NCBI RefSeq assembly: GCF_026210795.1
Contig: NC_089430.1
Location: forward strand, 186,001 to 250,000
From: Rhizophagus irregularis
Lineage: Eukaryota
DNA length: 64,000 nt
Direction: 5' to 3'
This document shows, one piece after another, positions 22,991 to 57,500 of this stretch. A model generated the notes under the pieces. It saw only the letters and a program-made list of their open reading frames with translations. It was not told where the DNA came from and searched no databases. The translations under genes were made by a program, and so were the position numbers. Within the stretch, counting starts at the first letter, position 1, and each line of letters starts with the position of its first letter.

Positions 22991-23230
22991 GTTAGTAAAT
23001 TCAGGAGTTGCTTGATACCTATTATAAATAATACAATGTGACGCAAAAAATAAGCACCGTGCAACATTGGGTGTAACTGATAATAGATTTAATATATACC
23101 GGCACTAACACAATATATTCCCGAGTATATGATAAAGTAGTATGGTACGATATGATATAATAAGTAAGGTATGTAACCTTTGGGTATGATTAATCACATT
23201 ACAGTTGTATTATAGACAAAATGAATACAA

Positions 23231-23266
<36 letters not shown>

Positions 23267-26821: not shown

Positions 26822-29800
26822 CGATAAGTTTATGATAATCTTGAGTTAGAATTTGACTTTTATTCTGTAGACGATCTTAATTAAATTAAAAAAAAATCAC
26901 TATCAAATTTAGAGTTGATTATTTAGTAGTTAAATTATTATCAATGCTTTTGCAAATTATTTGTTTACATTACTTTTTAATGACAGAATAAGAAATTTCT
27001 ATGTTCAAATTATACAATCCAAATTAATAAAATAATATTCTGTGAAATTTCTATTCATATTGTATCAATTTATTATTAGTCCGAATATAATCTTGTCATA
27101 GATAAAAATTTTCATTTTCGCGGAAAGTTTCCAAATTTTTCCAATTTACACGATGTACTTTTCCAAATTCTCCGAAATCAATTTCTTGAACGTTACTAAA
27201 ATGTTTGTAATAGTAATAATTTACATGATGTATTATTATTCTTCAATCCAACTAATCCATTAATTTGAATTTTCTGTAGCTGCATTTCAGTAAAATAAGA
27301 TGTGGGCCAAATAATATTTATTTAAAATTATCGACAAATATAATTAAGTTAAAATTTGTTTACTGAACACAAATTTCAATATTTAAAGAAAAAAAAAAAG
27401 ATATATATGCGTACATATTAATCAACGAAAACTTCTTTCTAAAGCTGTAAATGGTTTAGTCGATCTTTAAATTATATAGTACATGGAATTTTGTACAATA
27501 GATTAATTTTCCCAGACTAACCTGATTGAAACCGTCGATGATGTACCAAATAAACCTTAACGCTCACCTTCTTTTTTTACTTTGGTACCTTAGAATTTGG
27601 GGTAAGGGTAAGATATTTTAGGATTAAGATGATTGGGATCATCGGATCATTTTTTTAGTAGTGAATAAATATAGGTCGATAGTTACTCTAAACTTATGGT
27701 TAGAAATGTGCAAAATGAAATTATTATTGAAATTTGAAAAGTTAATTCTGAGCTATCACATGTTATTATTACAATCTTTTAATATCATTTGATAATCCCT
27801 TAATCCCTGATTCCCTGTATAAAATTCCTAATTTCAACTTTGAACTTAACTGTATTACATTAAATTAGTGTATTTACAAATCATAAAATAGGGAGTATAT
27901 TTTTAACAATCTTATCTAATATTCTTTTTTTTCGTGCACCACTTTGTCTAGCACGAATTGATTGATTGTTTGAAAAAAAAAAAATTTATTTATTGCATCA
28001 AGGACGCGATATAATAATACACATTTACAAGATCGATGATAACTTTGAATAAGTGACCAATATTTTATTCTTTTTTGAATGTATATAAAAAAAAAAGAAA
28101 AGGAAATAAGCATATAATAAATCACGTGATCCGATGATTTTAGTTTTGACGCAATCAAAAACACACTATAAAGCATACGTAATTGATTTTAATAAAATAT
28201 ATCATGAGTTTACTAGAAATATTGAAATTTACTCTGTATTTGACATTTTCATGCATTTCTTGCATAATAATTTCTGCTGTTGTTAGTGCAACTGCGTACT
28301 ATTGCGTCTATTCCTTAATATATTCGTCACGGTTCTTATCCCTCTCTTCAACTTTATACATTAAATTTGTAGCGCTTTGTATATTTTATGCGCCCTTTGT
28401 CTATTAGGTCTATTAGACCTAGTTCTAATTCTTAAATCACTTAAACCTTCCAAGTAAAAAAACTGCATTCGAATTGTATTGTCTAAAAAGTAGAGAATTT
28501 AATTAATAAAATACGGGGGAAGTATAAATCATAAAACAGATCTTTACATGAATTTTCTTTATCAAAAGTTGGTTTGACACTTTAGTATAAAGTAAATTTT
28601 ACTTTTTTGGACTTTGTATATACGTAAGTTTAGAAGTTATGTGTAAAAAACTTTACCACATATAAAACATTTTTTATTTCTTTAGAAAAGGTGTCAAACT
28701 TTAAGTGCATTTGTATATATTTAGCTTTATATTTGAAAATATATTTAAGAAATACATACTTGTCTATAAAGGAAATATAACAAAATTTCCCCGATTTTAA
28801 TAGTTAATTAAATTCTCTACCTTTTATGCGCACTATTGCACTGCTGAAAATAATAAAAAATTACCTTTATTATAACTTATTAAATGATTTTTATGTTTTA
28901 GAAATCATTAAAATTTATTCACTAATAATTATTTATACAAGAGTGAAATTAATCACTTATAAAACCCTTGCTTTCACATCTTTATACGTCATGTACATTA
29001 GTGCCTGTTCAAGGCGACCTTGTTTTCCTTCGTAATCATCTTTTAAAAAATAATGGTTAGGAGAGGGTCTCTTAGTAAGTTGAGCTAGTGAGATAAAAAC
29101 TCTACGCTTTCCATAACTATCATCACATTATTATAGGTCAAATGTAATTTGAACGGTAGTACCGGAAATAACTATAGCGTTAAAAGATGCATTATTTCTA
29201 TAATTAATTATTAAAATTAATAATTTACAAACATTTAAATTAAAATATTTTATTAATAATCTTTAATATTTAAAATATTTGAGAATTTTTCTGTAATGAA
29301 TTAGGTAAAATTAAGAAATTATAATAATATTTGAAAAATGAAAATAAAAGTCAAGTGCATTTATTGACGTTCATCACATTTACCTATCATTTCCCGACTC
29401 AACTTTATTTTGTCGAATTGTCACAGTCCATTTTGCCGGAATATTTTAAAGATTTATTCACGCAATATTTATCTTATTATAAGATCATTTTTTTTGTTCT
29501 CTTTATACAGAACTCAATTATGAATAATTATATATAAAATAATGAAATTTCGTTTATTGATTAAAGTTATAAAATTGATACAGCAAGGATGCGTGCACAG
29601 GTTATTTGAAAAAATAGCGGTCAGAAAATTTCTTGGTGAAAATGACGATTAGAAATGGTGTCATATGCGTACATGAATGAAATGTAAAGTATATGTATGA
29701 GGTTAATCATCGGATTATTATAGCTAAAGGTTTTTCAATATTTGAATTGTATTATGCAAAACGTGCAATTCACATGATAATTAATTTTTATTTATCACCC

Positions 29801-30047
29801 CAACTGCTAATACTGAATTTGGATTTATTTTAGCCTATTTTTCATATTTTTTCCCATGTTATCAAGCAATCTATGTTTTAAGTTTTTGATTATCATGTCA
29901 GATGATCGATAAAGATGCGGCGATTACAAATAAGGATTCTCAGACTAACCAATAACGTCAATTAATGAAATTTCAGCTTTATTAAATGATACGAACAAAG
30001 AAATTTTTTTTTTCTTTTATTTTTTTTTCAAAATAAATTTATTTACC

Positions 30048-32642
30048 ATGTCTGACGATACCAGTGTTGATTATTCGGCTGATATTGATTGGATTGAAGA
30101 AGCTATCACTAAAAAGTATTTTAAATATTATGAATTCGAGAATTTTAACAATATTCAGGAAATTGGTTCGGGAGGTTTCGGAAAGGTTTTTCGCGCAAGT
30201 TGGAAAAATTCGGGACAGTATTTAGCCTTAAAAACTTTTTTTAATTTTGACGATGCTACAATTAAAGGGATCGCTCGTGAGGTAATTAGTTATATTTATT
30301 GTATATATAATTATATAACATTTTCTTTAAAAAAATCTTAATATGATTAGTTATTCTTTCTATATATTAATTTTTAATTAGTTAAAACTTCAACGTGAAG
30401 TTGATTTTCATAATAATATTATTCGTTTCTTTGGAATTACAAAATATGAGCCAGGTATAAACTTTTTATATTATTATGCCTTTTTATCGTTTTAACGTCC
30501 CTCAAGATTTAACATTGCTGTGACGTAAACATTATGCTCTTTTTTAAAAAAAAAATTTTTTTTTTTTACTATTAGAAAGCGAAAATAATCTATTGAACTT
30601 GAACCGGTATTCATTTGTAATGGAATATGCTGATAATGGCACGCTTCGAAAATATTTGAAGAATAATTTCGATAGTATTACTTGGAAAGATAAATTAAAT
30701 ATGGCTTACCAGCTGGCTAGTGCCGTTTCTTGTTTACATAATGAGGGAATTGTGCATAGTGATTTGGTAATTATTTTAAATTATATAATTTTTTTTTTCT
30801 TGTCGCATTCTACCCTTCTATATCATTATGTTAATCCTAATCCATTACGTTTAACGTATATTAAGAATTAATAAGTATTATATTTATTTTTATGATAGCA
30901 CTCCAATAATATCTTGGTTCTTAAGAATAAGATTAAATTGGCTGATTTTGGACTGTCAAAGAGGATTGAAGAAACGTCCAGTCGGCAATCTTTCAAATTA
31001 TTTGGTGTTATTCCTTATATTGATCCAAAAAGATTAATGGATCAAGAATACAAATTAAATGAAATGAGTGATATATATAGTGTAGGTGTATTATTATGGG
31101 AGTTATCTAGTGGTAAGCCACCTTTTTATAATGATGGTGAAGCGTATGATATTGGTTTAGTTGTTGAAATTTTACAAGGTATTAGAGAAGAACCTATTCC
31201 TGATACACCCGAGGCTTATGTTGCGCTTTATACTGGTAAATATATTCTTCAAATAATAAATAATAATAATTATTAATATTATTGATATTTTAATAACAAT
31301 TTCTTTTTAAATCTAACGGTAATTTTTTTTACCAGAATGTTGGAATAAAGAACCAGTTCTTCGTCCAGCTATAAGTGAAGTGCTTGATCAATTGAAAGCA
31401 ATTATTTTTTCAGTCGACGAAACTAATGAAAATGATTTATATAATACTGTAAGTCAACATCAAGAAGACGGGCAAAGTAAACAAGGCGGACAAGAAAATA
31501 AAAATAATGAGGAATCAATAGACGATGAGAATTCATCATTTGTAAATTCATTATTAATAGGCATAATAGCTGATGAATTATCTAATCTTATTTTTAATGG
31601 TGAGAAAAAATTGGAAGTATCTACCATTTGTAATTCTTGTGAAGTTTATAACATCAAATCAGTAGAAGTTTATAAGTGGTTATTAGATAATCAATATGAT
31701 CCAAATCATATTTTTTTACTTGGAGCTTTTAATTATTTAGGAATTGGAACTGATGTTAATAAGGAAAAGGCGGTTGAATTATATCAAAAAGCGGCAGGCT
31801 TAGGACATAGTGTAGCTCAATATAATCTTGCTTGTATATATAAAGAAGGAAAAGTTGTATATCGAGATAATGAAAAAGTTTTTAACTTGCTAAAAAAATC
31901 ATCTGAAGGAGAATACTTAAACGCAATAAATATGTTAGGAGAATGTTATCATAAGGAAATCGGAACCGATATTGACAAAGAAAAAGCTTTTGAGTTATAT
32001 CAAAAAGCAGCGAATTTAGGGCATAGTGTAGCTCAATATAATCTTGCTCGAATGTATAGAAATGGAGATGGTGTTGATAAAGACAATGACAAAGCTTTTG
32101 AATTTGCTACGAAGTCTGCTGAAGGGAAAAATTTAAATGGAATAAATTTATTGGGAATTTTTTATAGTAAAGGAGTTGGAACTAGCGTTGATAAGCAGAG
32201 GGCATTTGAATTATATAAAACGGCATCAGATTTAGGACATAAATCAGCTAAAAGTAATCTTGCAATTTTATATAAAAAGGGAGAAGGTACTGAACAAGAT
32301 TATGAAAAAGCTGCTGAATTATATAAACAATTATATAGTGAAGGATATTCAAATGCATTTGGAATATTATTAGATTGTTTTGATGTTGATACTGAAGAAA
32401 AAGATGAAATGAAGGAAACGTTTGGAGGGAAATCAACAAGTTTAATTAATATTTTTATTGATGGAATGAGTGAAGAGGAAAAACTTAGCGTTCATGAGTT
32501 TGTAGCAAAACTTGGAAAACCATTGAGCATTATTAATCCTATTGAAGTCGTTGAAAATTATAAAACTGGGGAAGGAATTTTTAAAAATGCAAAAAATTTA
32601 TTTTACAGAAGTGCAGATGAGATTAGAAAACTTAAGAATTAA
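30048..32642 (+). CDS. TKL-type protein kinase with C-terminal Sel1-like repeats
   Basis: Exons 30048-30281, 30382-30454, 30576-30766, 30899-31235, 31336-32642; GSGGFG, LALK, HSDLHSNN, DFG; about six Sel1 repeats (AQYNLA...G.G). Confidence 0.92.
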
Positions 32643-34127: not shown

Positions 34128-34744
34128 AGGGGTCGGTCCCAGGAAATGTATCGGTCTTGGGACCGGTCTTCGGTTTTCGGTCCGAGATTTGAGGACCGGT
34201 CCGGACCGAGACCGATTATATAAAATTATCATTTAATATAAAAATGTTAAATTATATATTATTAATAAAGTTTTCTTTTAAAAATATCAAAATTTTCATA
34301 TGTTGGTATTTTGCAATATCAATATCATTCGATTCCTCATTGATGCTTTAAAATGTTAAAGACTTAAAGTACGAGAAATAAAAATTTTTCGTATATGCAA
34401 TTATTTTGTGTTACATGGTCAGCATCAATTTGATAATTTACTTTTATTCCCGTTGCAATTTTTTTTCATATTTTTTGATGGTTGTAAAAATTCTATCCAG
34501 TATTTTACTCTTAAACTTTGAGATTTGACAACAAAGGTAACTGGTAATAAATAATAAATTAATCTCATAATTTTTAGTGCGACCTGTATTTCATTATCTC
34601 GTTGATCCAACCCAACAATACTGCTATTATAAATAAGATAATTTAAAAAATTTTAAGGATCGGTCAAAAGACTGGTCCGGTCCTGGCTGAAAGACCGGTC
34701 TTTTTTGGGACCGGACCGGACTGGACCGGACTAATCCAACCCTA
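34128..34744. mobile_element. hAT-type MITE remnant with GGACCGGTCC subterminal repeats
   Basis: Right end CCAACCCTA; motif clusters at both ends; left terminus eroded. Confidence 0.6.
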
Positions 34745-35938: not shown

Positions 35939-36980
35939 TTACTCAAAAGACTCTATCAACTTATTTATAGGATTCTCATCTGAAGCATCAAGTTCTTCTA
36001 TATACTGATGACCTAATTCTAAGAGATAAGGAACACTTTTGTAATCATCCAAACTTATTTTTTCTTCAAACCAAACCTGCCATCGTTGATAATGATTTCC
36101 CAATAAACTATACATTGAACGATCAGTATTGCCTTTCTGTTGTGGTAGCACTACTTTGTGAAGATTTTGTGCCCAAAAAAGATTACCACGATATAGATCA
36201 GGATTTAAAGGGTTAGGCATATAGCCCCCTGTACCTAAAGAAAGCACGGAAATCTTTTCTTTTGCTACATTATACTGAATAGCTTTTTCATATGCCGCCA
36301 TTGCTGGATTATTAAGATGTAAGGCTCCGTCTATGAAAAAGCCCCTGCCCTTTATCTCATAAGGCGGAAAAAAAGTGGGCGCAGCCGTTGTTGCCATTAA
36401 AGTATCAAAAAAAGTGTCATTTGAGTAACCAGGACGATCATCCATAACGTGTAAATAAATGTGTACGTGTTAAATTATTTTCATCTACTGCAGGAATAAC
36501 TAGTTCTGTAAGTGCTTTATTTAAACGCACATTTCCGAAATGATTAAAAAACAATGAATTGCGATCTTTGTCTGTATATCTTGGCTTGAACAATTTCCAT
36601 GAATCATTTTTGGTAAACAAGTCTTTTACTTGGTTCTGGTAAAGATTTAATATATCTGAAGCTGAAAACTTTGGTCTTGAATTTGAACATTTATAATATG
36701 GCACGTTATTTTCATCATACATTATTTCCCAGGATGGTACCGATAGCCCAGCAGCAATAATCCCTCCTGTTGATGTTCCAGCTATCATATTAAATAAGCA
36801 AGAAATGGGTCTATGTGTGCGATATTCTATCTCACTAAGCCATAAGGCAGGTAATATTCCACAAACACCCCCTCCATCAATTGAAAGAATATTATAAGTG
36901 GGACTCTCTTTACCATAAGAACTCTTTAAGTAATCCATTTCATATTTAATAGTCTTTTTTCCTTTTTCGTAACAATCCAT
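35939..36980 (-). pseudogene. Patatin-like phospholipase, frameshifted and 5'-truncated by a transposon
   Basis: LSIDGGGVCG, AGTSTGG, AAPTFF, FIDGA, LSLGTG; frame break near 36440; coding-like sequence stops at the CCCTATG terminus at 36981. Confidence 0.88.
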
Positions 36981-38809
36981 CCCTATGAAAAAAGCCTGTG
37001 TGATTTTTGTTGAAAAAACATCCAATTAAATTCACTATGATTTCTGTATATTTGACCATACAATAATTGTGCTAAAAATTGCAATAAATCACACAATAGT
37101 TGTATGGCAATCATACAATAATTATCCAATTTATGACCTGATTTTATACAATTATTGTCTAATTTTTGAGCCAAATTTCGGGCCGAATTTTAGGAATTAT
37201 TCTGGGCCGAATTTAGAAATTATTGTGAGCCGAATTTTAGGAATTATTAGGAATTATTATGGCCGAATTTAGGAATTATTGTGCCGAATTTAAAAATTAT
37301 TGTGGGCTTTTTGGGCTGAATTTTAGGAATTATTCTGGGCCGAATTTAGAAATTATTGTAATTATTGTGAACCGAATTTTAGGAATTATTAGGAATTATT
37401 ATGGCCGAATTTAGGAATTATTGTGGGCCGAATTTAAAAATTATTGTGGGCCGAATTTTAGGAATTATGATTACAGTAAGTCAAAATTTGGTCAGTAACG
37501 ATTAACGACAAGCAAATTTATAAAGTGAAATTATGGATTTTTATTAATTTAAATATAAAATATACAAAATAAAACACTATATTTGATATGAATTATAAAT
37601 GTAGAAAACTATAAAAAAATATAAAAATATATATATAATAATTAATAAATAATATACTATCGCTGTATTAGATATAAACTATAAATTAAAACTATAAATG
37701 TATAAAGAAAATAAAATCAAATATCAAATAAATGTTAATAGCATGATTAGCGAATTAATAATATTAAAGAAAGTAAAGTAAATTATTGGTATAAGTAAAT
37801 TATTAATATTAAAAATAAAAAAGTATGAAGTTAGTAAAGAAAGCAAAATTAGAATTAGTAAGTAGTATGGAAAGTAAATTGTTAGCATTTGTTAGCGTTA
37901 GTAATAATAAAAAAAAAGAAAGTAAAATAAATTATTGTAAGTAAATTATTAATATTAAAAATAAAAAAGTATGAAGTTAATAAAGAAAGCAAATTAGTAA
38001 GTAGTATGGAAAGTAATTGTTAGCGTTTGTTAGCGTTAGTGATAATAAAAAAAAGTATAAAGTTAGTGAAAAAAGTAAGTTAGTAATTGAAATGTAAAAA
38101 AGTTAGAAAATAAATAAAAGGATAAAAAAAAATAAATTTTCTTACCGAAAAGAAAGTTTGAAGAAAAGAAAGTTTGAAGAAAAAAAGTTTGAAGGAAAAA
38201 AAGGTTAAAAAAAATAAACAAATATTTTCTGCGTAGTGAAAAAAGCAAGTTAGTAATATTCAAATGTAAAAAAGTTAAAAAATAAATAAACGAAAAGAAA
38301 AGTTTGAAGAAAAAAAGTTAAAAAAAAATAAACAAATATTTTCTGCGTTATATTTATTTTGATGATCAGATCACGTGTATAATATAATTTAATTTTAATT
38401 GGACGATCAGATCACGTGTATAATATACATAATTTTAATTGGACAATTTCCTTTATTTTCCAAACTAACCGGATAAGTAGTGACACAAAATTTTAACTAA
38501 CGAAAAATGAACTTTTAAACTTTAATTTTGCATTATCGTTACATTGTTACAAAATTTCATTACAAAAGCAATACGACACAAAAATTTACTTTATTTAAAA
38601 TATGCATATTATGTGCTATTCAAGGATTATAGATTCACAAAAGTACCCGAAATGATAAATTTGTCAAAATGTGATTCGTCTAGAATATATCTTTTATATT
38701 CAGGGGTTGCAAAATTTTGGTTTCTTTTTCTTTTTTACATATTGTTATCTCTAATTTATGAAATAAAATAAAATATTAGTATTTGTAACTAATTAATTTC
38801 AAATTAAAT

Positions 38810-41009: not shown

Positions 41010-42619
41010 ATGTAATACTTATTTAAAATAATAGTTATTTAATTTGATGATTTTTTTTGAAGACAAAAAAATAGTGATAGTATTACTGTAGATTAAGTGT
41101 TAGATCCTCGAACGAGGATAATTTTTTTTAAGATGATTAATTTATCGTTAATCGCAACGAAATAAATAGGTGTGTAAACACTAGTGTAAAGATGTATGTA
41201 AAGAGGTATGTATAATGCTTTTTTTTAAAAAAAAAATAGGCAGAAACATTATCAATTGTTCTTAAAAAAAAAAATAATCTTTTTTTTTAATACAATATTC
41301 GAAGTACAAAAAAGGAATACAAAAGTCTATTTTTAAATTACACAGCCATCTTAAAACGACAATATTTAACAGGAATATTTGTGTACAAATTATTCCGAAT
41401 AAAGATAAATCAAAATTTTTTAGCTTATAAAATCTGAAACATAAATTTTATGCAGTGTGAAAAAAAAAAGTATTTTAGTTTTTAATTTTTATAAATCTTG
41501 TATAGTGTAAAAAAAAAGTGTTTATTTTTTATAAATTGTGAAAAAAAAGTATTGGAAAAAAAATGTCGAATAATAAAGTATTATGTATATGTTCCAAATG
41601 TAAAAAAAAAGGATCAGATAATATTGGTAAATATGTGCATCCTACTACCAAATGGAGACATATTAAAAATGCAAAAAAGAATTATAATTTTAGCGACAAC
41701 GATGATGATAGCGACGATCACAGGTCGAACAGATGTCATTGTCGCAAAATTTGCCTGGAATTTTTCTGGCAAATTGAGAATTATCCCGGTAAATTGAGGT
41801 AAATTGTGTTACAATTTTGGGATAATGGAGGTCTTACAATTTGGCAAATTTTGTCAAAATGGCGACAATCCTACACAATTCCTAATTCAAATGTTGAGAA
41901 ATTTTTCAGAAATTTTAGTCAAATTTTTAGTAATTTTATGCAAACGTAATGAAAATTGTGGTGAATTTAGTCAAAATTTTTAGTAATGTTATGTAAACGT
42001 AATGAAAATTGTGGTGAATTTAGTCAAATTTTTAGTAATTTTATGCAAACGTAATGAAAATTGTGGTGAATTTAGTTAAATTTTTAGTAATTTTATGCAA
42101 ACGTAATGCAAATTGTGGTGAATTTAGTCAAATTTTTAGTAATGTTATGTAAACGAAGTGCAAATTGTGGTGAATTTTTAGCAATATTAGGCCAATGTTA
42201 TGTAAATTGTGATGAATTTTTTGTAATGATACGTAAATTGCAAATTTGAAATAAAAACTTTCCATTGTTGCACAATTTACCGGAAAAATTCTGGTAAATT
42301 GTGCATTTTTTTGTCAAATTTTGGAAAAATGGACCATTTTACCAAAATTTAACTTTCAAATGCTAGAAAATTTTTAGCAATTTTAGACAATTGAGTGACA
42401 ATTGTTTGACAATTTTTGGACAATTGAGTGTAAATGTAATATTTTTAAGACAATTTCTGACAATTGAGTAATAATTAAGCAACAATTTTGAGTAATTTTA
42501 TACAAATTTTATAACAATTTATTGATTCTAATTTTATTAACAATTTATCTAATTATTCAATTATAACGTGTAATTAAGTACAATAATGTTAAAAAAAACA
42601 AACATCAAAAAAAAACAAA

Positions 42620-44310
42620 AAGTTTCGAAGGTTAATCTTCGAAACTCACCAAGCAAGGAGCCAAAGAACTATTATCTTGTTACAATAACCTACAAAAAAA
42701 GAAAACCATTCAGTTAGAATGTTTCTTAAAGATAAAACAGAAGTTTCGTAACGAAACGTACGAAACTTACCATTTCAGAAGCCATATCCAATACCTGAAC
42801 GTAAAGTAATGGCTTCTATTCAACAATGGTTTTACGAGATTCATGTTACCTAAGTTAGCTTCCCAGATATCCCGAACCTACAAAAAAGAAAAGGAACGTT
42901 AGTAAACGGTTCCTAATAAAAAAAAATTAAGTTTCATGATATTTGTCATGAAACTCACCATTTAAACTGAAGTTTCGAAGTTATACTTCGAAACCTACAC
43001 GTTATCCAAACCCAAGTTCGAATCTGGAGGGGAGGGACCTACAAAAGAGAATAAAGAAATGTTAATAAAACATTTCTTTAAAAAACAAACTGAAGTTTCG
43101 CAACGTTTTTTTTGTTGCGAAACTTACCAAAGTCAAGTATCCCGCTCGAACCTACAAAAAAAAAATAGAAAAGAAACGTTAAAAAACGTTTCTAATAATA
43201 AAAAAAAAACACGGTAAGTTTCGTTGCGAAACTTACCATTTTCACTTTCCAATGATACCCGAATTGGAGACCTACAAGAAATGAAAAAGTAAAAGAAACG
43301 TTAGAACGTTTCTTAATTAAAAAAAACAAAAAAGATAAGTTTCGTTGATGAAACGAAACTTACATTTTTCCGTTTCGGAATCCTAGAGCACCGGAACCTA
43401 CAAAAAAAGTAGAAGAAACGTTAGAGAACGTTTCTTAATTAAAAAGAAAATAAAATATTTTAAGTTTCGTTAAAACGAAACTTACATGTTAACGTTTCGG
43501 AATCTTGGAGTACCAGAACCTACAAAAAAAGTAAAAGAAACGTTAGAACGTTTCTTAATTAAAAAAAATATAATATAATAAGTTTCGTTAAGTTTCGTTA
43601 AAACGAAACTTACATTTTCCGTTTCGGGAATCCTGGAGCACCGGAACCACCGAACCTACAAAAAAAGTAAAAGAAACGTTATAGAACGTTTCTTAATTAA
43701 AAAAATATAATATAAGTTTCGTTAAAACGAAACTTACATTTCCGTTTCGGCCATTAATGAATATTCATGCTGAAACTTGGCGTTCTCCTGAACCTACAAA
43801 AAAAAGTAAAAGAAACGTTAGAACGTTTCTTAATTAAAATAAAAATATAAATATAATTAAGTTTCGTTAAACTTACATTTCCGTTTCGGAATCGAGGAGG
43901 GCCATTAATGAATATTCATGTGAAACTTGGCGTTCTCCTGGACCTACAAAAAAAAAGTAAAAGAAACGTTAGAACGTTTCTTAATTAAAATAAAAATATA
44001 AATATAAGTTTCGTTAAACGAAACTTACATTTTGCCGTTTCGGAAACCTGGAGTACCGGAACCTACAAAAATAAAGTAAAAGAAACGTTAAAACGTTTCT
44101 TAATAAAGAAAAAAATAAAAAAAAAATAGTTTCGTAAGATAACAAACTTTACCCGACTTCTCCAAATGTAACGATAATTGCCATACCAACGGGAAATGGG
44201 AAAGGTGAGGGGAAGGACGAGAGAGAGGGAAGTGGGGAGAGAGAGGGAAGGAGAAACGAGAGGGAGGGTGACGGGAAAATGGTGAGAAGAAGGGAAGAGC
44301 GAAATAAACT
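42620..44310 (-). ncRNA. Putative spliced non-coding transcript with 11 repeated structured introns and short exons
   Basis: Introns at 44152-44063, 44028-43944, 43876-43794, 43737-43656, 43613-43520, 43485-43398, 43363-43272, 43236-43152, 43127-43039, 42958-42878, 42770-42690; typically GT(A/G)AGTTTC...(C/T/A)TAAC...pyrimidine tract-TGTAG. Transcription is inferred. Confidence 0.7.
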
Positions 44311-44339
44311 AAATTAGTTTTTTTTTTAAACTCTAAAAA

Positions 44340-44476
44340 AAAACTGCGGCTGCGGCTGCGGCTGCAATAGTTTATTTTTAGTATTTTTAGGTTAGTTAAA
44401 AAATGAACTGCGGCTGCGGCTGCAGTTTAACCAAGTTCATGTCACGTGATACACGTGACATGTATTTTATATAAAT
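44340..44476. promoter_or_regulatory. Putative (possibly bidirectional) promoter
   Basis: Two (CTGCGG)n tracts, perfect dyad CATGTCACGTG-ATA-CACGTGACATG (44438-44462) with two CACGTG boxes, and TATA-like TTTTATATAAATA. Confidence 0.5.
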
Positions 44477-47400
44477 AGGGGGCTTTTCCCCGAAACTTTT
44501 TTTTTTCTTTTTTTTATAATTTTTTTAATTTAATGATAGATGTATATATATACTTATATATATACATATATATATATCTATCTAATAAACTTTACGAAAA
44601 GCCCCTCCTCTGTAAACAGGTAGAGGCCATAAAGTACCTATAGGGGGAGAGCCATTGCTGCTCCCTCCGCCTGTTTATAGTGACAAAAAGAGGGAGTCTT
44701 CAGTAGTAAGGTTTAGTATTAAATTAAACAACATATCACAACACATCGTGTTGTTACATTGTTAATATTAACAATGTGTTTAATGTTAAATAATGCGTTT
44801 AGAATATAAATATTATAAATTTAATAATGTCCGTAATTTACAAATAAATAAAAATTATCATCAATTTTAATGTAATTAAGTGTAATTCTACGTTATCCAA
44901 TGTAATTGTAATATTTTTTTGTGTTTTTTAGTGCAATTCCGCGTTTTTTAGTGCAATTCCGCATTTTCTAGCATAATGTTACATTTTCCAGCATAAATAA
45001 AAATTATCCTAATAATTTTAATGTAATTAAGTGTAATGCTACGTTATTCAGTGTAATTGTAGTATTTTTTTGTGTTTTTTAGTGCAATTCTGCATTTTTT
45101 AGTGCAATTCCACATTTTCTAGCATAATGTTACATTTTCCAGTATAACGCGAAATTTTCTAAAAAATATGATAATTGTGGTACTTTTTAGTGTAATGCTA
45201 CATTGTCTAGTGTAATTGTGGTATTTTTTAGTTCAATTCCACATAATCTAGTATAGTGCTACATTTTTCAGTATAATTTAATGTAATGTAGAATTTTCCA
45301 AAAAATGTGATAATTGTGATACTTTTTAGTGTAATTTGGTGAAATGCTACATTTTCCAGTGTAATGCTATATTATTGAGCATTTTCCAAAAAAAAATTGT
45401 AACATTTTAACATTCTGACGAAAATGAAACATTTGACCAAAAAAACATAAAATTTGCTGAAAATATGCAACATTTGACAAAAAATATAGAATTTTCATAA
45501 AAAATGCACCATTTGCTAGAAAATTGGAATATTTGACAAAATTTGATTTTAATTGACAATGTTACAACAATTTTATGAAATGTTGTTACAATGATATCAC
45601 ATTGGAGATAAAATGTGGCATTTTCATAAAAATGCACCATTTGCAAGAAAATTGGAACATTTGACAAAAAAAAAGCAAAATTTGATTTTAATGACAATGT
45701 TATAACAATGTCACAAAATGTTACGAAATGTTACATTTGAGATATAATGTAGCATTTTCCCAAAATTTCATAAAATTTGCTAAATCGGACAATGTTGTAA
45801 CAATGCTATTCCAAAAAATTGCTCAGCGTAATGCAGCATTTTCCACAATTTCCCACCATTTTCCAGAAAAATGTGGAATTTGCATTTTTTGAATTTTGGA
45901 CAATGGTGCCCCTTCGACCTGTGGATGACGATAGCGATAATGATGATAATAATAATAATAATAACGATCATGATGACGATAATAATGATAACGATAATGA
46001 TGATAATAATAACGACCACGACAAAGACCACGATGACGATAATGATCACGATGACGACCACGATAATGATGGCGATAATGATGATAATAATAACGACTAC
46101 GACGATAATAATCATGATGATAATGATGTAGAATATAAACAGTAAGTATTAAAAAGAATATTTCTGTTATTCGTTAACTAATAATGATTATTAAATGTTT
46201 TATATTATATTTTAATTGTAATGATGATAGGAGGAATGAACTTGATAATAGATCTTCAAGATCTCCTACTCCCGTTTTCATAGTAATTGATGATGATTGC
46301 TATGATGACAATCAAGAACACCATGACAATCGTGACAATTCTGATGAAAAAACAGAATCATCAACTGCAACTGAATCTGAATCTTATGAAAGTTTATATG
46401 ATTCTTTTGATGATAATAATACGTTTGAAGTATTACAAAAAGGACTATATAGTAGCGATAATGAATCATCTGATGACGGTATTAATTTAACAGAAGATAA
46501 TATACGCAATATTTATTTATTTATTTAAATTATTTATTATTAATGCAAATACATATTATTTGTAGGGTCTAATATTGTAGGGTCTAATATTAATAGTATT
46601 AATGATGAAGTTGCTAGAGGTTTACGTCTTCTTGAAGTAAAAACTCGACAAAATATTACTGATGCAGCCTTTAAAGAAATTGTTACTGCAGCTAGTGGTA
46701 ATTTTACAAGTCAATATACACTAATAAAAACACTTAAAAATATAGTTCCTATTAAACCAATTTGGGTTGATATGTGCATAAATTCATGCTGCGCTTTTAC
46801 TGGTAATTTGAAAACATTAAATAAATGTACTTATTGTAAAGCTGAACGTTATCAAGAAGGAGGACGACCAAGAGCACAAGTAGCATATTTTTCAATTCAG
46901 AATCGATTTAAAATTCAATATCAAGATCCAACACGCGCAAAACAATTACGTTATCATTCTGAATATATTACCAGAGAAGATGATGGTGCTATTGGCAATG
47001 TATTTGATGGCTCACAATATAAATATCTATCCCAAGAGGGATATTTTCAAGATGATCGTGATATTGTACTTTTAGGTTCTGTTGACGGTTATCAACTATT
47101 CAAACAAAAATGTAATGATTGTTGGATAGTTTTATTTATTAATGCTAATTTGCCACCCCATCAATGTGTAAAAAAAGAAAATTTACTTATTACTTCAATC
47201 ATCCCGGGTCCTAAAGCTCCAAAAAATTTTAATTCTTTTATGAAACCAATAGTTGAAGAATTATGCTTATTAAATGGTAATTTTAATTACATACATTATG
47301 ATAAAACTTAATGATAAAAAAAAATATATTAAAAATAATTGTAAATTTGTAAATTTGTAGATGGTGTTGAATGCTATGATGGTGCTACGAATGAGAATTT

Positions 47401-49869
47401 CCTCCTAAAAGTTACGGTACTTTCCTGGTCTGGAGATACTCCTGGATTGTCAAAACTTGCTTGCTTAACTGGACATAATTCATACATGGCATGTCGTTAC
47501 TGTGATCTTCGAGGGATATATAATAATCATGTATATTATCCTACAACACCACCATCAATTGAAACATATAAAACTTATAATCCATCAGATTTACCAAAAA
47601 GAACTCATAGAGATTATAAGATAAGAATTGAACAAATAACGACAATACCGCCATCAAGAACACACGATACATTAATTTCTGATTTAGGTAAATAATAAAT
47701 CTATTGCAACATAATTTTTTTTACTATAAAATTAATAATTATTATTTTGAAATAGGTGTTACAGGACGTAGTGTTTTATTAGAAATAGAAACAACTCGAT
47801 TTCCTACATGTTTTCTAATAGATATTATGCATTTGTTTTATGAAAACATCGCATTATATATGTTAAAACATTGGATGGGTTGTTTTTTTAAAGATTCTAT
47901 TCTTAATGATCAGCTATATGTAATTAACAACAAACAATGGACTGAGATTGGGATTGAAATGGAAACTATAAGAAAATCCATTCCAACTGATTTTGGTCGA
48001 TCACCACGAAATATCTTACATCACCATAATGGTTACAAAGCAGAGGAGTGGGCTTCATGGATAACCTTATATTCTTTACCTTTATTAAAAGATCGTTCGC
48101 CAGAAAAATATCTTAAAGGTTGGTCCTTTTTTGTTAAAGCTGTTCAGCTTTGTCATGATCAAGAAGAAATAAGGAAATTATTATTGCTATTTTATCAACA
48201 TTATAAACGGTATATATATTACAACATTTATTTATTTATTTGAATCTTTATTGTTTTTTTATTAAAATAATATTATTTTTAGTTATTATTATCAGTTTTT
48301 GGCTGCCCGACTAAGTGTAATGAAAGTATGCTTTCATTATATTTTACATGTTGCTGATAGCATTCAGGATACTGGACCATGTTGGTCAACATGGCAGTTT
48401 CCTATGGAACGTACTTGTGGAATGTTACAACCGCTAGCAAAATCACGTCTCCATCCATATAAAAATCTAACAAACAATGTATATTTGTTAGAATTATTTA
48501 ATAATTTGTGTTATTTTAGAAAATTTTATGATCAGATTTTTCCTTCTATACCTTGTAAAGAGTATAAAGAGCACCTGGTTTATACAAATGAGAATTATGA
48601 AGAAGAATTTCAATCCCTATAAAAAATATATATACAGTTAGTATACTGTATTTTCGTATTTTGCGAACAGTATATTTATAGTATTATTACCGTATAATTA
48701 CAGTATTTTCACATACTGTATATATTCGGTATTCTGCACACCGTATCATATATACGGTTTGCATACAGTATATTTTTCCAGTTTCACCCGTATGTTTTAT
48801 ACTTGTAAACAGTAGAAAAACCGTATGTTTTATACCAATAAACAGTATATTGTTTTATATTTTATATTGCGAACAGTATACTTTTCCAGGATAAACCGTA
48901 TATTTTATACTGATAAACAGTACTTTTTTCCAGTTTAAACTGCATATTTTGTACTGATAAATAGTATATATTATTCAATTAAATCGTATATTTTATATTT
49001 GCAAACAGAATTTAAAATGCATTTATAATCAATAAAATTTTTATTAAATAATATTAAATATACAAATATTTTTTTATAAATAATATAAATAAAAAACTAG
49101 TATAAAATAATATACTATTTGTAAAAAAAATAATATTAGCAAAATATAAACAAAAAAAAAAGAAATTTAATTAGTAATATTATCATTATTTTAAATATAA
49201 AAAAGGAATAATAAAAGGTTAGTAAAAAAAAAGAAATTTAATTAGTAATATTATCATTATGTTAGTAATATTATTAATATATTAGTTAGATATAAAAAAG
49301 TAATAAAACGATAGTAGTAATATTAGTAATATATTAAAAAAATTAAATAAAATACATAAAAGTAAAAAAAAATATAATTAATATATGTTAACATATAATA
49401 TTAATATAAAAATAAAAACATAAAACGGTGTACATATAGTTGTTTAATTAATATTGTTAAAATTCACCATTACAATTCCAGAGAGATATTAGTGAAAGTA
49501 ATTGTTAATTGATATACGAGCATATCACTTTTTGTATAATTAGTAGTTTGGTACAAATATATATATTATATATTATCAAAATAAGTTTTTTATTTAATTT
49601 TTATTATTATATGTTAAAATAATTTTGGTATTCATTTTTATTGTCTTTTTTTTCTAAAAAAAAAGAAGAGAAAAGAATATTTTTGAAAAAATAAACAAAA
49701 AATAAACAATAACGTGTTATTAATGCATGTGATCGGCGATCAGCTGAATTTTAATTGGTTAAATATAGAAATGCGAAAATTAAAAAGCAGAAGTATTTTT
49801 TTTAAAATTTAAATCATACAGATTGTTTTTAAAGTTTAATTAGTAATTTAAAAGTTCTTTTTTTTTAAT

Positions 49870-51765
49870 AAGAAAATTTGTAAAAATTTTTCTTAATACT
49901 GCTTAATTTTTAAATTAAAGCCTTAATACTAAATTAGCTAAATTAGAATTAAGAAAAATTTGTGAGAATTTTCTTTGATACTGCTTAATTTTTAAATTAA
50001 AGCTTTAATATTAAATTAGTTAAATTAGAATTAAGCAGTATTAAGAAAAATTCGCAAGAATTTTCCTTGATACTGCTTAATTTTTAAATTAAAGCCTTAA
50101 TACTACTAAATTAGTTAAATTAGAATTAACATATGGACTGATTTATGGAATTAAGTTTTTATATTCAAAAAACTAACTTTATTAAGAAAATGCTAATACA
50201 ATTTACATGAAAATGATAGATTCACACCGCTGATATAAATAAAATTGATTTGATTATATTATTTTTTGATTTTTTTAATAATATCATTAAAATTAAAAAA
50301 TTTAAATATAATTGTCATGACAAAATATTGAATAACTTAACGTGTATGTGTGCTAGACGAATGAATTTATATTCATTAGAAAGAGGTAATCAAGAGCTAT
50401 CCATAAACCAAATATCACATGAATTGGATCACAAGTTGCTGAATAATTACGTTCAATATATTTATTTTTAACCTTTGACTTTGATCGTTAATATCTTCAC
50501 ATCTAGTAATTCGATTTGAATAATCTTTTTTCGTTCAGGTAGAGTAGATTCTGGGCTTTCATATGAATATAAATATATGTGTTTAGCATACATGTACGCC
50601 GAGATATTAACGATTTTGTTAATTGAATAAAACTCTGACACAAAAATTTTTAAAATTATAATTCTTACCAAAAGATGATCTTTACAGGTATTATTGGGCT
50701 CTTTTTACTTTACTTAACAAGTTTTTATTTGCCATTTCTGTTTTAAATTGAATAAATTAATAAAATCAATTTTAAAAAGTAATTAACAAGTAGAATAAAA
50801 TTAGTATAGTAAAAAACAAAAAAAAACATCTCAAAAACTCTAAATCATAACTCACATTTTTATTTTGTATATATTTTTACTAAAAAAAAGAAGGGAATAA
50901 GGTTAAAAATAAATGAAAAAAGATTTTTCTAATTAATAAAAATTATTAATATTTGTTTTCTTACTTACTGATTAAAAAAAACCTGCTATATATGCCTATA
51001 AACTTTTCTAAGTCACCTAACAAAAATCTGATTGAAAAGTGATTGAAAAGTGATTGAAAAAGAAAGTAGTTGCCATTGTTATTTTTGAATAAACGTTAAA
51101 AAATTTTTTTTTTATTTTTTGATAGATTTAGATCATCTGATTATGTAACACATACAATTTAAGCTTGTGAAACATAATTCTTGTTAAAATGTGCAAATCT
51201 TTATGTTTGGCTAATTTCACGAATTGGCAGATATAAGCAGTATTAAGAAAAATTCGCAAGAATTTTCCTTGATACTGCTTAATTTTTAAATTAAAGCCTT
51301 TATACTAAATTAGTTAAATTAGAATTAAGCACAATAAGCAGTATTAAGAAAAATTCGCAAGAATTTTCCTTGATACTGCTTAATTTTTAAATTAAAGCCT
51401 TAATACTAAATTAGTTAAATTAGAATTAAGCAGTATTAAGAAAAATTCGCAAGAATTTTCCTTGATACTGCTTAATTTTTAAATTAAAGCCTTAATACTA
51501 AATTAGTCAAATTAGAATTAAGCAGTATTAAGAAAAATTCATGAGAATTTTCCTTGATACTGCTTAATTTTTAAATTAAAACCTTAATACTAAATTAGTT
51601 AAATTAGAATTAAGCAGTATTAAGAAAAATTCGCAAGAATTTTCCTTGATACTGATTAATTTTTAAATTAAAACCTTAATACTAAATTAGTTAAATTAGA
51701 ATTAAGTAGTATTAAGAAAAATTCATGAGAATTTTCCTTAATACTGCTTAATTTTTAAATTATAA
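49870..51765. repeat. 92-bp palindromic tandem repeats in two blocks (49870-50130, 51235-51765)
   Basis: Unit contains AAGCAGTATTAAGAAAAATT-cgcaag-AATTTTCCTTGATACTGCTT; spacing 51428 to 51520 is 92. Confidence 0.9.
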
Positions 51766-51964
51766 TTTATAAAAATGATTTATAATTAAGTTTTGAATTT
51801 AGTATTATCAATCGGACTTTGAACTTAAAAATTAAACAGTATTAACAAAAATTCTTGTGAATTTTTTAATAATTGTGATTTTACATCAGTGAGTTTTAGG
51901 GTAGTACATATTAGCAGATACTAGTATTGTTTGATGCTTTAAAGTGTAGAAAAACTTACTCTAT

Positions 51965-53907
51965 CACACGTCAAATAAATAAAAATTGGCTGATTTTTAG
52001 CTATATTTGTCCGATTTGTGACTTTTTACAGCCGTATTACCAATTCTTAACCACATTTTTCAGTTTTTTCACTATACAAAAAAATTGTATATACATTATG
52101 AAATATATATTTTTATAAAAAATTATATTGTAATATTGAATTAAAATTTAAAAAATATTTTATTAAGCAATATTAAATAAAAAACTAATCTTAAATAATT
52201 AAATTTTAAACAAAATACATTAAGAATATAAATTTACTTGTAATTTAATGTAATACGCACAATTATAAAAAATTAATAACTCCACAAATATTAACTGTGC
52301 CTTCATTAAAATAAATATTCAAGTAGATTCTAAGCTGCTGAACAATTTTTAATTAATAAAAGAAGTCGATTTACTTTGGCTAAAGTGCTTAAAATACGCT
52401 CTGAAGTAACAAAATGGAAAAAATAAAATTCGTAAATGAGTACCGTTGTGAAAATCGTGAATAACTCCACAAATATTAACTGTACCTTCGTAAAAATTAA
52501 TATCCAAGTAGATTTTGACCTGCTGAACAACTTTCAATTAATAAAAGAAGTCGATTTACTTTGACTAAAGTGCTCAAAATACGCTCTGAAGTGACAAAAC
52601 GGAAAAAAATAAAATTCGTAAATGAGTACTGTTGTGAAAATCGTGAATAACTCATCAAGTATTAACTGTACCTTCGTAAAAATTAATATCCAAGTAGATT
52701 TTGACATGCTAAACAACTTTCAATTAATAAAAGAAGTCGATTTACTTTGACTAAAGTGCTCAAAATACGCTCTGAAGTGACAAAACGGAAAAAAATAAAA
52801 TTCGTAAATGAGTACTGTTGTGAAAATCGTGAATAACTCATCAAGTATTAACTGTACCTTCGTGAAAATTAATATTCAAGTAGATTTTGACATGCTAAAC
52901 AACTTTCAATTAATATAAGAAGTTGGTTTACTTTGGATAAAGTGCTCAAAATACGCTCTGAAGTGACAAAATGAAAAAAATAAAAGTCGGGAATGAGTAC
53001 TGTTGTGAAAATTGTAAATAACTCATCAAGTATTAACTGTACCTTCGTGAAAATTAATATCCAAGTAGATTTTAACCTGCCGAACAACTTACAATTAATA
53101 TAAGAAGTTGATTTACTTTGGCTAAAGATCTCAAAATACGCTCTGAAGTGACAAAATGAAAAAAATAAAAGTCGTGAATGAGTACTGTTGTGAAAATTGT
53201 AAATAACTCATCAAGTATTAACTGTACCTTCGTGAAAATTAATATCCAAGTAGATTTTAACCTGCCGAACAACTTACAATTAATATAAGAAGTTGATTTA
53301 CTTTGGCTAAAGATCTCAAAATAAGCTCTGAAGGTAAAAAAATTTGTAACTTAATACTACTGTATAATATAAAAAATGTAAATAATTCCAAAAATATTAA
53401 CTGTACTTTTATGATCTTAACAGTTTTAAACTTACTAAACTACTTTTAATTAAAAGAATAAGATTTACTTCAGCCAAAATGCTCAAACCATACTTTGAAA
53501 TATATGTAAAAAAAATATAATATTTGTTTATATTTTAAATTATGAGTTATTTAATTTAAATGTATTTATATTTAAGAAAAAAAATATTTTAATTCTATTT
53601 TATAAAGTATTTAAAAAGTATTTTAGTAAAGTTTTTAAGGCAAAAAAATAATTATAACTGAAATAAAAAAAAAATCTAAGTTAATAAATAAATATTAAAC
53701 CGTAATACATAATCACATGTTATATATTAAAATCGAAAAATCCTATTACAAATAACCAAAATCGGCAATTTCATGTTAAAAATCAGAAATATTATATTAA
53801 AATCAGAAATATTTATTAAAATCGGAAATATTATATTAAAATTGCCAAAAAATCAGACAGCCATATTAAAAAGGGCAAAAATCTGATTTTTATTTATTTG
53901 ACCTGTG
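51965..53907. mobile_element. Nested CACA(C/G)GTC-terminated non-autonomous element
   Basis: 22-bp TIR CACA(C/G)GTCAAATAAATAAAAAT; TAT on both flanks. Confidence 0.8.
52270..53480. repeat. About 186-bp tandem repeat, about 6 copies
   Basis: TAT(C/T)CAAGTAGATTTT at 52501, 52687, 52873, 53058 and further copies. Confidence 0.92.
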
Positions 53908-54516
53908 TATATCTGTAGAAAATACGTTATAAACGTATAAATTTTAATATACTGTAGAATAATACGTATACCGTATCCTTTATTTACAATATTTTTGTGA
54001 ACCGTATACAAAATACTGATATACAGTAGAAATGATATACGTTATAGACGTATGAATTTAATATAGTATCACACAGTATGTTTACCGTATACTTTATTGT
54101 ATTTTTTACTAAGCACATTTTGCGAACAGTATACATTATACTGATATGCCATATGTAAAAATGCAAACTGTATCAAAAATACGTATATACAGTATAAAAA
54201 CTGTATACATATTTTTTATAGGGAATGGCCTTCTAAAACATACACTCTTACATTCCAAGAAGTTAAAAAAATAAAAGATCATTTATGTGTAATAGATGAT
54301 CGTGCATCAGAAATGCGATTAAATGTATGTATTAGTATTATTTTATTTTATGTTATTTTATTTTCAATTTCGCGATAGTATACTTTTAATGTGATAGTTA
54401 TTGATGATCACTTTCCAAATAAATGTACTTTTTCACTTAATTTGGTATTTGTTGTGTGATCTTCAAGTATTTTTTCAGAAATTTGGAAGTGTGCAACGTG
54501 AACTTTAGAGTTCAAA

Positions 54517-57500
54517 TTTATATATATATAATATGCATATGCATATGCATATTCGCAATTTCAATAATAATACATTATTTAATGCTAATATTTCAAAAAA
54601 TATTGCTATATGCAAATATTGCTTCTTTTGACATTATTAGAATAAAATCATAAATTGGACACTTCTGTAATACTCTTATTGCTTGTTAAGTTTAATTATC
54701 AAATAATAAACTTTTGTAAAAAAAAAATTTTGTTGATCATCTTTTTTCTTTGATCATCGTCAAAGAGATAAATAAAAAAAAATTAAAAAAAAATTAAAAA
54801 ATGAAAAAACAATTAAATTTAGAGTAAATTTATTCATCGCACGTGCGATGCATCGCCACTTTCCTTTTTTGTAAATTATTTATGTTGATCAACCTGCTTA
54901 TACATCGCCACCCCCCTTAAAATGGCAATGATAAACATAAAAATTTGCATCGCACGTGCGATAAATAAATTATTTCTTAAATTTAATTAACATTTAATTA
55001 AATAATGAAGTTTTTACTAAAATTTATTAAATAAAAATAATATATTGTTTAATTATTTTATCCATTACAATATAATTTTTATATTAAAAAATTAAACCAA
55101 TAATACTAGTGCGTTGATCATTTCAATGATCAAAACATTGAATAATAAAAAAGCTCTGAACAGTTCCAATTTTCAATTCTTTTTTAATTGGTCAGAATCA
55201 TTTTCACGTAATAACTCACCATCCAGTGATCGTAGAAAGACGATTAAGAGCTCATTAGAATCCTCTTATTGAGAGCTTTCAAATGATGCCAAAATCATCA
55301 TTTTAGCATCGATAGATGGCGAGTTATTTTGACACATTATCAAAAAAAATAAAAATTAGAACCATTTGGCCAGGAGCTTTAAACAATACGCAAAATAATA
55401 TTATGTACTGATTATTGACATTTACTGAACATTATTCACTCAAGAATTGCTCATTGTATTGTTCAATGCTATATTATTTTTTGTAGAATTATTTTACTTT
55501 TTATTCAATACTTATCAATTTTTAAACTTTACAAAAAATTTAATACATATTTAATCAAAGGTCATCTAATTTAACTTCAAGAAACTTTCAGTTAGTAAAG
55601 TTAACCCAAAATTAAATTTTTCATAAAATTTTATCCATTTAACTTTTATAAACCTAAATTAAATATGTGTTATATGTTCAGATAATCCAAATTTATCAGA
55701 AAATAAAAAAATTTTTTTTATTATATTCAAAAACAAAGATAATAACCAATTCTTTTTTTCAATCACTTTTCAATCACTTTATTGTTAAAAAAAATTAATA
55801 AATATATAAAGTGGTTATTTTAAACAGTAAGTAAAAAAAAATTATTATTCATAAGTAAAAATTATTTTTTATTTGTTTTAACTTCAGTTCCCTACTTTTT
55901 TTTATATAAAATATTAAAAATATAAGCTATAATATAAGATTTTTTATTTTTTTTAAGTTAATAAGATTCTAAAATTTTTTTTTGATAAGAAATGATAACT
56001 TTATGTCAGTTTATGCAATTAACAAGTTCATTAATATCTTGGCATTCACATATGCTAATCAAATAATTTTAAACTCATTTGAAAGGTAAGAATGTACTTT
56101 ATTTTAGCATTACTAGGCATGGTGATATCAACAATCAAAGATAAAAATTAAAAAAAAAATATATTGAATGAATTTGCTCAGCAACCAGTGAATCAATTCA
56201 TTTGTTTTTGGATTCATTAGATAGGTCTTAATTTTCTCTTTTGGATGAATATAAATTCATCCATTTATCTTACATAGACATCAAGTTATTTGCAATTTTG
56301 TTCCAAGAATTTTATAATGATTATTTAAATTTTAATAATGGTGTATTAAAAAAAATATGATTAACAATTTTATTCATAAATTATTATTTTGTGCAACTGG
56401 TAATTTGGTAAAGTTTGTTTTTTAGAGTCAAAAAGTGCTAATTCCAAAAATTGGCATATATGAACAAATGATATGCTTGGGGACGAAGTCCCTCTTATTT
56501 AAGAAATAAATAAAGTTAAAAAAATTAAAAACGTATAGATGATCATGCAGATCTTGTGATAATCAATTAAAAAAGTGTTAGACGAAATTTTTTTTCAAAA
56601 ATTTAAAATTTTTTCTTTTTTTATAAAAACATCATAAAATTTTTTTTACATTTTTTTCTATTTGTAAGATTAAATATTTGGATATTACATAATTACAAAT
56701 TAAAATTATAAGTGTATTTCTTTTAAAAAATACTGTGATATTTCATAAAAAATATTTTTTTTTACTATTTTTATTTTTAAACTACTTGAATTTATAATTA
56801 ATGAAAGAATTAATTTAAAATTCATGTTATTTCAAATTTTTGTCAACTCAGTTCTTAATTTTTATATTACATTTTTTTTTATATAAAATTTTTTTAAATT
56901 AAACTTATTTTTCCAAACACACTATAATCTCCACTTTGGACAAATGAAATCAACTTTATTTATTAATTGAAAGTTGTCCAGGCGGGTTAAAAGCACTTGA
57001 ATATTAATTTTCATGAATGTAGATGTAGTGCATAGAGAAGATTGCATTTTTCTTGATGATATTAACTCTCTTTTCTGTTTTTTTTTAATTTAGAGCGTAA
57101 TATCTCCACTTTAGACAAATGAAATCAACTTCATTTATTAATTGAAAGTTGTTCAGGCGGGTTGATTCTACTTGAATATTAATTTTCACGAACATAGGTG
57201 TAGTGCATAGAGAAGATTGCATTTTTCTTGATGATATTAACTCTCTTTTCTGTTTTTTTTTTAATTTAGAGCGTAATATCTCCACTTTGGACAAATAAAA
57301 TCAACTTCATTTATTAATTGAAAGTTGTTCGGGTGGGTTGATTCTACTTGAATATTAATTTTCATGAATATAAGTGTAGTGCGTAGAGAAGATTGCATTT
57401 TTCTTGATGATATTAACTCTCTATCTTTTCTGTTTTTTTAATTTAGAGCGTAATATATCCACTTTGGACAAATGAAATCAACTTTATTTATTAATTGAAT

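Follow-up and report, generated by a model that had tools for sequence, protein, structure and literature searches.

TnpA of En/Spm and VANC of the VANDAL elements are transposon-encoded proteins that bind arrays of a DNA motif, and some non-coding genes act as intron hosts, as in the case of snoRNA hosts and mirtrons. In Cryptococcus, stalled spliceosomes are linked to RNAi. Passages of PMC12730594 give CAC..GTG ends and 3-bp target duplications as features of EnSpm transposons, include fungal EnSpm elements and report Tet_JBP genes as known transposon cargo in fungi. Template switching is marked by stem extension and loop inversion according to parts of PMC8794818, and about two thirds of the repeats of Rhizophagus irregularis are unclassified according to parts of PMC11075540. 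Here we describe a locus of this fungus that shares features with several of these systems, within a window of 64,000 nucleotides (contig NC_089430.1, positions 186,001 to 250,000).

The locus is an array of 12 tandem GT-AG introns on the minus strand (42549-44152), with intron lengths of 81-101 nt and exons of 24-107 nt between them. Donor, branch motif, pyrimidine tract and acceptor signals are present in all 12, the branch motif being unclear in intron 12. The earlier note had placed the array at 42690..44152; a twelfth intron lies outside that range, at 42649-42549. A cryptic acceptor (T-tract and TTAG/TAAG) recurs 55-60 nt past the donor, directly before the hairpin at the branch motif, and a branch point is not evident for it. 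The array consists of the following parts, hairpin 1 being the stem at the donor and hairpin 2 the stem at the branch motif:

44063..44152, minus strand: intron 1, predicted; with the donor GTAAAG, a weak hairpin 1 and an intact hairpin 2
43152..44028, minus strand: introns 2-8, predicted; exons of 34-67 nt; the units most alike
44028-43944, 43876-43794, 43737-43656 and 43613-43520, minus strand: introns 2-5 individually, predicted
43485-43398, 43363-43272 and 43236-43152, minus strand: introns 6-8 individually, predicted
43039..43127, minus strand: intron 9, predicted; extended hairpin 1 and a CpG-type double change in hairpin 2
43093-43125, minus strand: extended hairpin 1, 12 bp
43052-43080, minus strand: 12-bp stem TAAAGAAATGTT/AACATTTCTTTA
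42972..42998, minus strand: orphan donor-like hairpin (GTAGGT...) inside an 80-nt exon
42878..42958, minus strand: intron 10, predicted; GTGAGT donor, double changes in hairpin 1 and hairpin 2
42930-42955, minus strand: stem AGTTTCATGA/TCATGAAACT
within 42958-42878, minus strand: stem AGGAAC/GTTCCT, with one bulged C
42690..42770, minus strand: intron 11, with spliced reads; an intact hairpin 1 and a branch A that is predicted to lie in a loop
42549..42649, minus strand: intron 12, with spliced reads; hairpin 1 intact, no hairpin 2
42621-42646, minus strand: stem AGTTTCGAAG/CTTCGAAACT

The hairpins over the splice signals are genuine. Every stem quoted in the earlier note is found in its place on the minus strand, and the extended hairpin 1 in 43127-43039 is present as well, except that the final A-C of the version given there does not pair. 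Exact matches to hairpin 2 occur eight times in the window, all within the array, and none of 100 shuffles contained any. The predicted folds are stable: z scores were -3.0 to -6.6 for five array introns, while -0.25 and +1.29 were obtained for two ordinary predicted introns; all 12 range from -1.8 to -6.1, compared with -2.1 to +1.4 in a set of 10 ordinary predicted introns. Donor positions +4..+6 are predicted to be paired in 11 of the 12 introns (p at least 0.91) and the branch A in 10 of 12 (p 0.85-1.0), so that both signals are predicted inside stems, as the note had it, with the frequent exception of G+1 and T+2, which often remain unpaired in these folds. The loops had been described as varying freely; this is untrue for hairpin 2, where 60 of 72 loops end in CT or TT and thereby complete the branch motif.

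The earlier note overlooked that the array is the cargo of a transposon. The array fills a 4,205-bp element (41719-45923) that holds no transposase, protein matches to transposase being found only outside the element. The element and its surroundings are laid out as follows:

41563..41718, plus strand: codons 1-52 of the host transposase gene; proteins P0006-P0008 have the same N-terminus at 100% identity
41716..41718 and 45924-45926, plus strand: target site duplication GAT, left and right of the element
41719..41729, plus strand: left terminal inverted repeat CACAGGTCGAA, 11 bp perfect, with an imperfect match up to ~33 bp
41730..42548, no strand assigned: left AT-rich subterminal repeats, 52-bp period
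44340..44470, minus strand: putative promoter block, with a CACGTG double palindrome (44438-44462) and GCAGCC repeats
44844..45912, no strand assigned: right AT-rich subterminal repeats with 20-, 41-, 128- and 151-bp periods, loosely inverted relative to the left set
45913..45923, minus strand: right terminal inverted repeat CACAGGTCGAA, 11 bp perfect
45924..48613, plus strand: host Transposase_21 gene from residue 52, with further pieces at 54223-54324 and 58506-58996

The terminal inverted repeats begin with CAC, and three matches at one mismatch were reached in none of 100 shuffles. The match to Transposase_21 proteins with the label Rhizophagus irregularis resumes at 45924, at 97-99% identity, and two of these proteins, P0007 and P0008, run through the insertion point, residue 52 mapping to both flanks. 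This empty site in R. irregularis proteins indicates that a true insertion took place, with duplication of 3 bp. The inverted ends, the GAT duplication and the Transposase_21 gene split at codon 52 fit a non-autonomous EnSpm/CACTA transposon, of which three features are found: inverted ends that begin with CAC, a target duplication with an empty site, and subterminal repeats without an internal transposase. An autonomous element with the same ends was not found within the window, nor was a partner for a third end, CACAGGTC, which lies at 53897-53907 on the minus strand with one mismatch. The block upstream of intron 1, with its CACGTG and GCAGCC motifs, is probably a promoter; it recurs upstream of a related metagenome array (L071), and GCAGCC repeats are also found in another (L063). 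At the other side, the joint 42548/42650 shows that the spliced RNA ends somewhere within the left subterminal repeats.

The third CACAGGTC end is situated inside a second insertion in the same transposase gene (48615-54223), which has inverted ends CCCTATAAAAAATAT, AAT flanks and 92-bp and 185-bp tandem repeats. A third gap in the transposase match (54325-58505, 4.2 kb) holds a 176-bp tandem repeat, and no inverted ends were found for it. Other short palindromic clusters, ATCCGGAT, CAAATGAC and GGACCGGTC, are located at 6105-6171, 7983-8074, 16847-16891, 18588-18613 and 34160-34721, and are probably the ends of other transposons. The window also contains a broken LINE-like element with RVT_1 and RNase H, kinase and Sel1 genes and a patatin gene (8899-16544, minus strand; 20908-32642; 35939-37025), a content typical for R. 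irregularis. A 15-bp tandem repeat at 61907-62056, TCGTTCGGAGTACCC, is similar to the exon motif of the array.

A metagenome scan for hairpin 1 returned 105 loci, of which 38 AT-rich loci with the same architecture were kept and 67 were dropped as unrelated. By a rough grouping, the 38 fall into about 11 groups, and their sequences suggest that they come from mycorrhizal fungi. Since the scan needs one perfect hairpin 1 per locus and the parser expects GTRAGY-like donors, conservation figures for this family lean high. Two scans of viral contigs for the family gave no locus in one case and two unrelated loci in the other, and a scan of genome contigs gave only three unrelated loci, which were bacterial and GC-rich.

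Flanks were scored in 21 loci, and transposon-like ends were found near the arrays in five of them (L019, L071, L063, L015 and L039), many contigs having short flanks. In L019 and L071, CACAGGTC is located upstream of the array. L063 carries its intron array inside an element with a CCCTATA end that matches the second insertion of the window, and L015 and L039 have repeat-rich ends by their arrays, which look hAT-like. This suggests that one intron array is carried by several transposon families. A portable non-coding module of tandem consensus introns in mycorrhizal fungi, swapped among CACAGG-, CCCTATA- and hAT-like transposons and bearing a branch hairpin that acts as a splicing switch to steer RNAi and methylation, is an idea we consider rather unlikely; if true, the module would allow its transposon to mimic a spliced gene or to detain the spliceosome.

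Some related arrays hold extra acceptor-only units or other intron types. Long donor-less, acceptor-only runs (T-tract, TAG, then ~30 nt rich in TTCG) stand amid full introns in L054:1034-3896, L012, L013 and L052. Other unit types are seen in L065 (minus strand, first 700 nt), L071:1350-2223 and L004, comprising a GGCGTT/AACGCC branch stem, a GGAATC/GATTCC variant and hairpin-free units; the second intron type of L065 is present in two copies and places the branch motif in the GGCGTT/AACGCC stem, with 7-8 of 9 pairs. In L080 (3-1277, minus strand), a Tet_JBP dioxygenase frame (E 1.3e-09) lies downstream of two arrays.

We aligned reads from three poly(A) RNA runs chosen by their species label (X19, X20 and X22), together with DNA contigs (X15), to 42400-44470. 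X19 (191 aligned reads, with approximately 24% of the run covered) contained two CT..AC joints, which skip the 81 nt of intron 11 and the 101 nt of intron 12, with 3 reads each. Two introns were thus seen spliced in one of the three RNA runs, in agreement with the reading of these introns as spliceosomal. Both joints were absent from X20 (261 reads), X22 (77 reads) and the DNA contigs, and none is listed in the three RNA runs for the other ten introns. Most RNA reads align over part of their length and derive from paralogues, so missing joints say little; the spliced reads may themselves derive from a sister copy of the array. A 34-nt exon piece at 43754-43787 is the sole match of 41-64 reads in each of the three RNA runs, the reads continuing elsewhere, which suggests a better-expressed related transcript at another place.

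It is conceivable that the stems mask consensus splice signals in the RNA, leading to slow or conditional splicing, retained introns, and stalled spliceosomes or small RNAs that tune transposon silencing, a proposal that we regard as unlikely. In its favour, donor positions +3..+6 have a median pairing of 0.93 in 108 family introns compared with 0.37 in 10 predicted ordinary introns (p=0.001), and the predicted stability of hairpin 1 (-10.7 kcal/mol) exceeds that of the U1 duplex (-5.4 to -9.2 kcal/mol). L065 and L004 have branch stems as well, of other sequence. In yeast, parts of PMC12350175 report a depletion of stems from canonical splice sites, so the present layout is unusual; that paper saw no association of such stems with the spliced fraction. 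Both spliced introns carry hairpin 1, which therefore does not stop splicing. They also both lack an intact hairpin 2, and many RNA reads cover array introns, as masking would predict, with few molecules, low depth and paralogues mixed in.

ATG frames in the RNA predicted after splicing reach at most 44 codons, and a coding array was accordingly rejected; 2 of the 11 inner exons have a length that is a multiple of 3. A protein search with the frame of one metagenome array (L057) retrieved just three near-copies and a weak atlas lead, and a search with the array frame from the window retrieved none, which counts for little. On the plus strand, an H/ACA arrangement was also considered and rejected, as the ACA stems from the exon/donor junction and reads ACC in most copies.

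The earlier note held that the pairing is kept by compensatory changes, maintained by selection or by a repair process. We assessed this with a set of 108 non-redundant family introns, of which 82 have the partner arm of hairpin 1 and 72 have hairpin 2. Most core cells are invariant (1153 unchanged), and 17 double Watson-Crick changes stand against 134 one-sided or broken pairs (37 G-U, 48 A-C and 49 other). Double changes do exceed column shuffles that ignore relatedness, in hairpin 1 (6 versus 2.8, p 0.04) and in hairpin 2 (11 versus 3.7, reached by 0 of 5000). The claim is thus borne out only in part. CpG transitions account for eight of the 17 double changes, and seven affect the outer, non-CpG pair of hairpin 2. 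When a covariation tool was applied to the 39 of 72 hairpin 2 copies with 4-nt loops (37 distinct), 6 cells were found versus 3.9 expected, a value reached in 85 of 500 shuffles, and it returned one pair only, with a score equalled by a slid control. The covariation check thus gave an excess in the full count but no significance for the hairpin 2 core.

Selection on the RNA is not supported by these data. G-U pairs are not favoured over A-C pairs, neither overall (37 versus 48, p=0.28) nor at CpG pairs nor outside CpG (8 versus 19), and the antisense strand has a more negative z score than the sense strand in 12 of 12 array introns. Pairing is lost in 56 of 308 CpG cells and in 46 of 842 other cells. 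Among the 108 introns, 42 have both hairpins, 27 only hairpin 1, 17 only hairpin 2 and 22 neither, the last class being inflated by some false introns among those parsed; one or both are thus missing from 66. In L039, hairpin 2 is kept in just 1 of 10 introns, which suggests that the hairpins are dispensable.

The repair process proposed in the same note is the better-supported branch. Inner extensions of hairpin 1 covary (77 pairs from 31 distinct inserts, versus 15.6 when shuffled and 26.1 when swapped); reverse-only and complement-only insert controls were not counted, as the first letter of the inserts is G and the last is C. One array, in L080, contains an exact inversion of the loop (GCAAA/TTTGC), a single case, and re-copied arm pieces occur in 7 of 25 long hairpin 1 inserts; such marks are ascribed to template switching in parts of PMC8794818. 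Hairpin 2 showed no loop inversion among its 29 non-palindromic loops. Altogether, the family shows that apparent compensatory change can arise from CpG decay together with DNA copying.

The stems could alternatively be by-products of an inverted CpG motif (GAAAC[G]TT, AACGTT pairs) bound by a transposon protein, possibly keeping the element unmethylated, with GAAACGTT as the docking motif and putative target of EnSpm accessory proteins; we hold this to be improbable. GAAAC/GTTTC reaches a density of 33 per kb in the array versus 0-3.6 elsewhere, the changes in the stems are strand-symmetric, the arrays lie inside transposons and the CpG observed/expected ratio is 2.05 in the array versus 0.78 in the host transposase. 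The Tet_JBP gene that follows the L080 arrays would also suit such a role. AACGTT pairs are mostly 10 bp apart in other arrays but mostly 8 apart in the window, and the GAAAC[G]TT motif is absent from the subterminal repeats of the element itself (0 and 1 copies). Splice signals, T-tracts and acceptor-only units are strand-specific, later units of L071 lack the motif, and no binding protein was identified. Spacing peaks of hairpin 1 at 10 and 19-20 are explicable by 9-nt arm-plus-loop duplications, and helical phasing of hairpin 1 was rejected on that account.

A reading in which the intron itself is the active unit, either as a mobile introner or as a small-RNA intron (mirtron or snoRNA) with the exons as disposable spacers, appears very improbable. 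Intron motifs do persist while exons diverge between arrays, and the stable predicted folds resemble those of fungal introner-like elements in parts of PMC3609843. However, the exons of one array are homologous to each other, which makes exon plus intron the repeated unit and speaks against a mobile intron; all copies in the window lie in the array with homologous exons, the metagenome copies are also arrays, and no solitary copy in an unrelated gene was found in the window. The ends of the array introns are not inverted relative to each other. As for small RNAs, the stems of the array, at 9-13 bp, are short substrates for Dicer, and each intron has two local hairpins and an unpaired 3' end, a layout unlike that of a mirtron or an intronic snoRNA. 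An Rfam search gave no family over the array and two sub-threshold miRNA matches, both outside it.

We give about an even chance to the array being the interior of an EnSpm-ended insertion that has grown by tandem duplication of exon plus intron, its hairpins renewed by template switching or slippage and not by selection for an RNA mask. One unit of a micro-exon and an intron would have been tandemly duplicated into the array, with the donor, the branch YTAAC and the T-tract/AG kept by selection or recent descent. The short inverted motif GAAAC[G]TT is arranged as reverse, forward, forward, reverse, and its arms would be renewed by template switching and slippage; as each splice signal overlaps one arm of the inverted motif, arm-to-arm copying would keep rebuilding the partner arm. 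It is tempting to speculate that an intron-rich, CpG-rich, gene-like transcript helps the transposon to stay unsilenced, but this is the weakest step and a doubtful one; the CpG ratio, which would fit it, is also explained by the youth of the array. Against renewal by DNA copying stand the two introns seen spliced, which are those without an intact branch hairpin, the excess of double changes in hairpin 2 over shuffles, the different sequence of the L065 branch stem and the lack of loop inversion in hairpin 2. Template switching and selection on the RNA can act together, and template switching, masking and docking can coexist.

Literature searches, and passages of 10.1101/2021.03.30.436303, yielded no description of hairpin intron arrays. 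The words intron, hairpin and palindrom have no occurrence in the available text of PMC11075540, whose curated repeat library and supplements may hold the element. A non-autonomous EnSpm element with an intron array as cargo is apparently an undescribed variant, and one unclassified repeat of R. irregularis is now given a defined anatomy. Its introns also occur naturally with a donor or branch hairpin or without one, and this series would allow the role of stems over splice signals to be tested with deep RNA-seq, small-RNA and methylation data that already exist. If splicing of the cargo affects silencing, transposon control in an important symbiont of plants would be tied to splicing.

In comparison with known systems, the array resembles snoRNA hosts and mirtrons in its non-coding exons and conserved intron interior, but lacks an Rfam match and, on the sense strand, a C/D or H/ACA layout. 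Unlike the stalled-spliceosome RNAi of Cryptococcus, it has consensus splice signals and not weak ones. With the TnpA sites of En/Spm and the VANC arrays of VANDAL it shares a short motif in two orientations, repeated in the non-coding parts of a DNA transposon; here, however, the motif is fused to the donor and the branch point and is absent from the subterminal repeats. The element agrees with non-autonomous EnSpm/CACTA (CMC) transposons in its short inverted ends that begin with CAC, 3-bp duplication, long subterminal repeats and lack of an internal transposase, and in being nested in a Transposase_21 gene, and differs from them in its interior, where 12 introns and their micro-exons form an array that has a putative promoter of its own. 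The length of the element, 4.2 kb, is above the limit of 1 kb that parts of PMC11075540 give for MITEs in the curation of R. irregularis. Fungal introner-like elements and duplicated introns, as described in parts of PMC3609843 and PMC11282704, likewise comprise many similar GT-AG introns with a branch point, a pyrimidine tract and a stable predicted fold, whereas the present unit includes an exon and is tandem, not scattered in coding genes. The present introns, 64-105 nt long across the family, also have two local hairpins in place of end-to-end pairing. With hairpins made by template switching, as parts of PMC8794818 present them, the stems share perfect pairing, stem extension, paired changes and loop inversion, and they differ in that they overlap splice signals and are found in the multi-copy cargo of a transposon.
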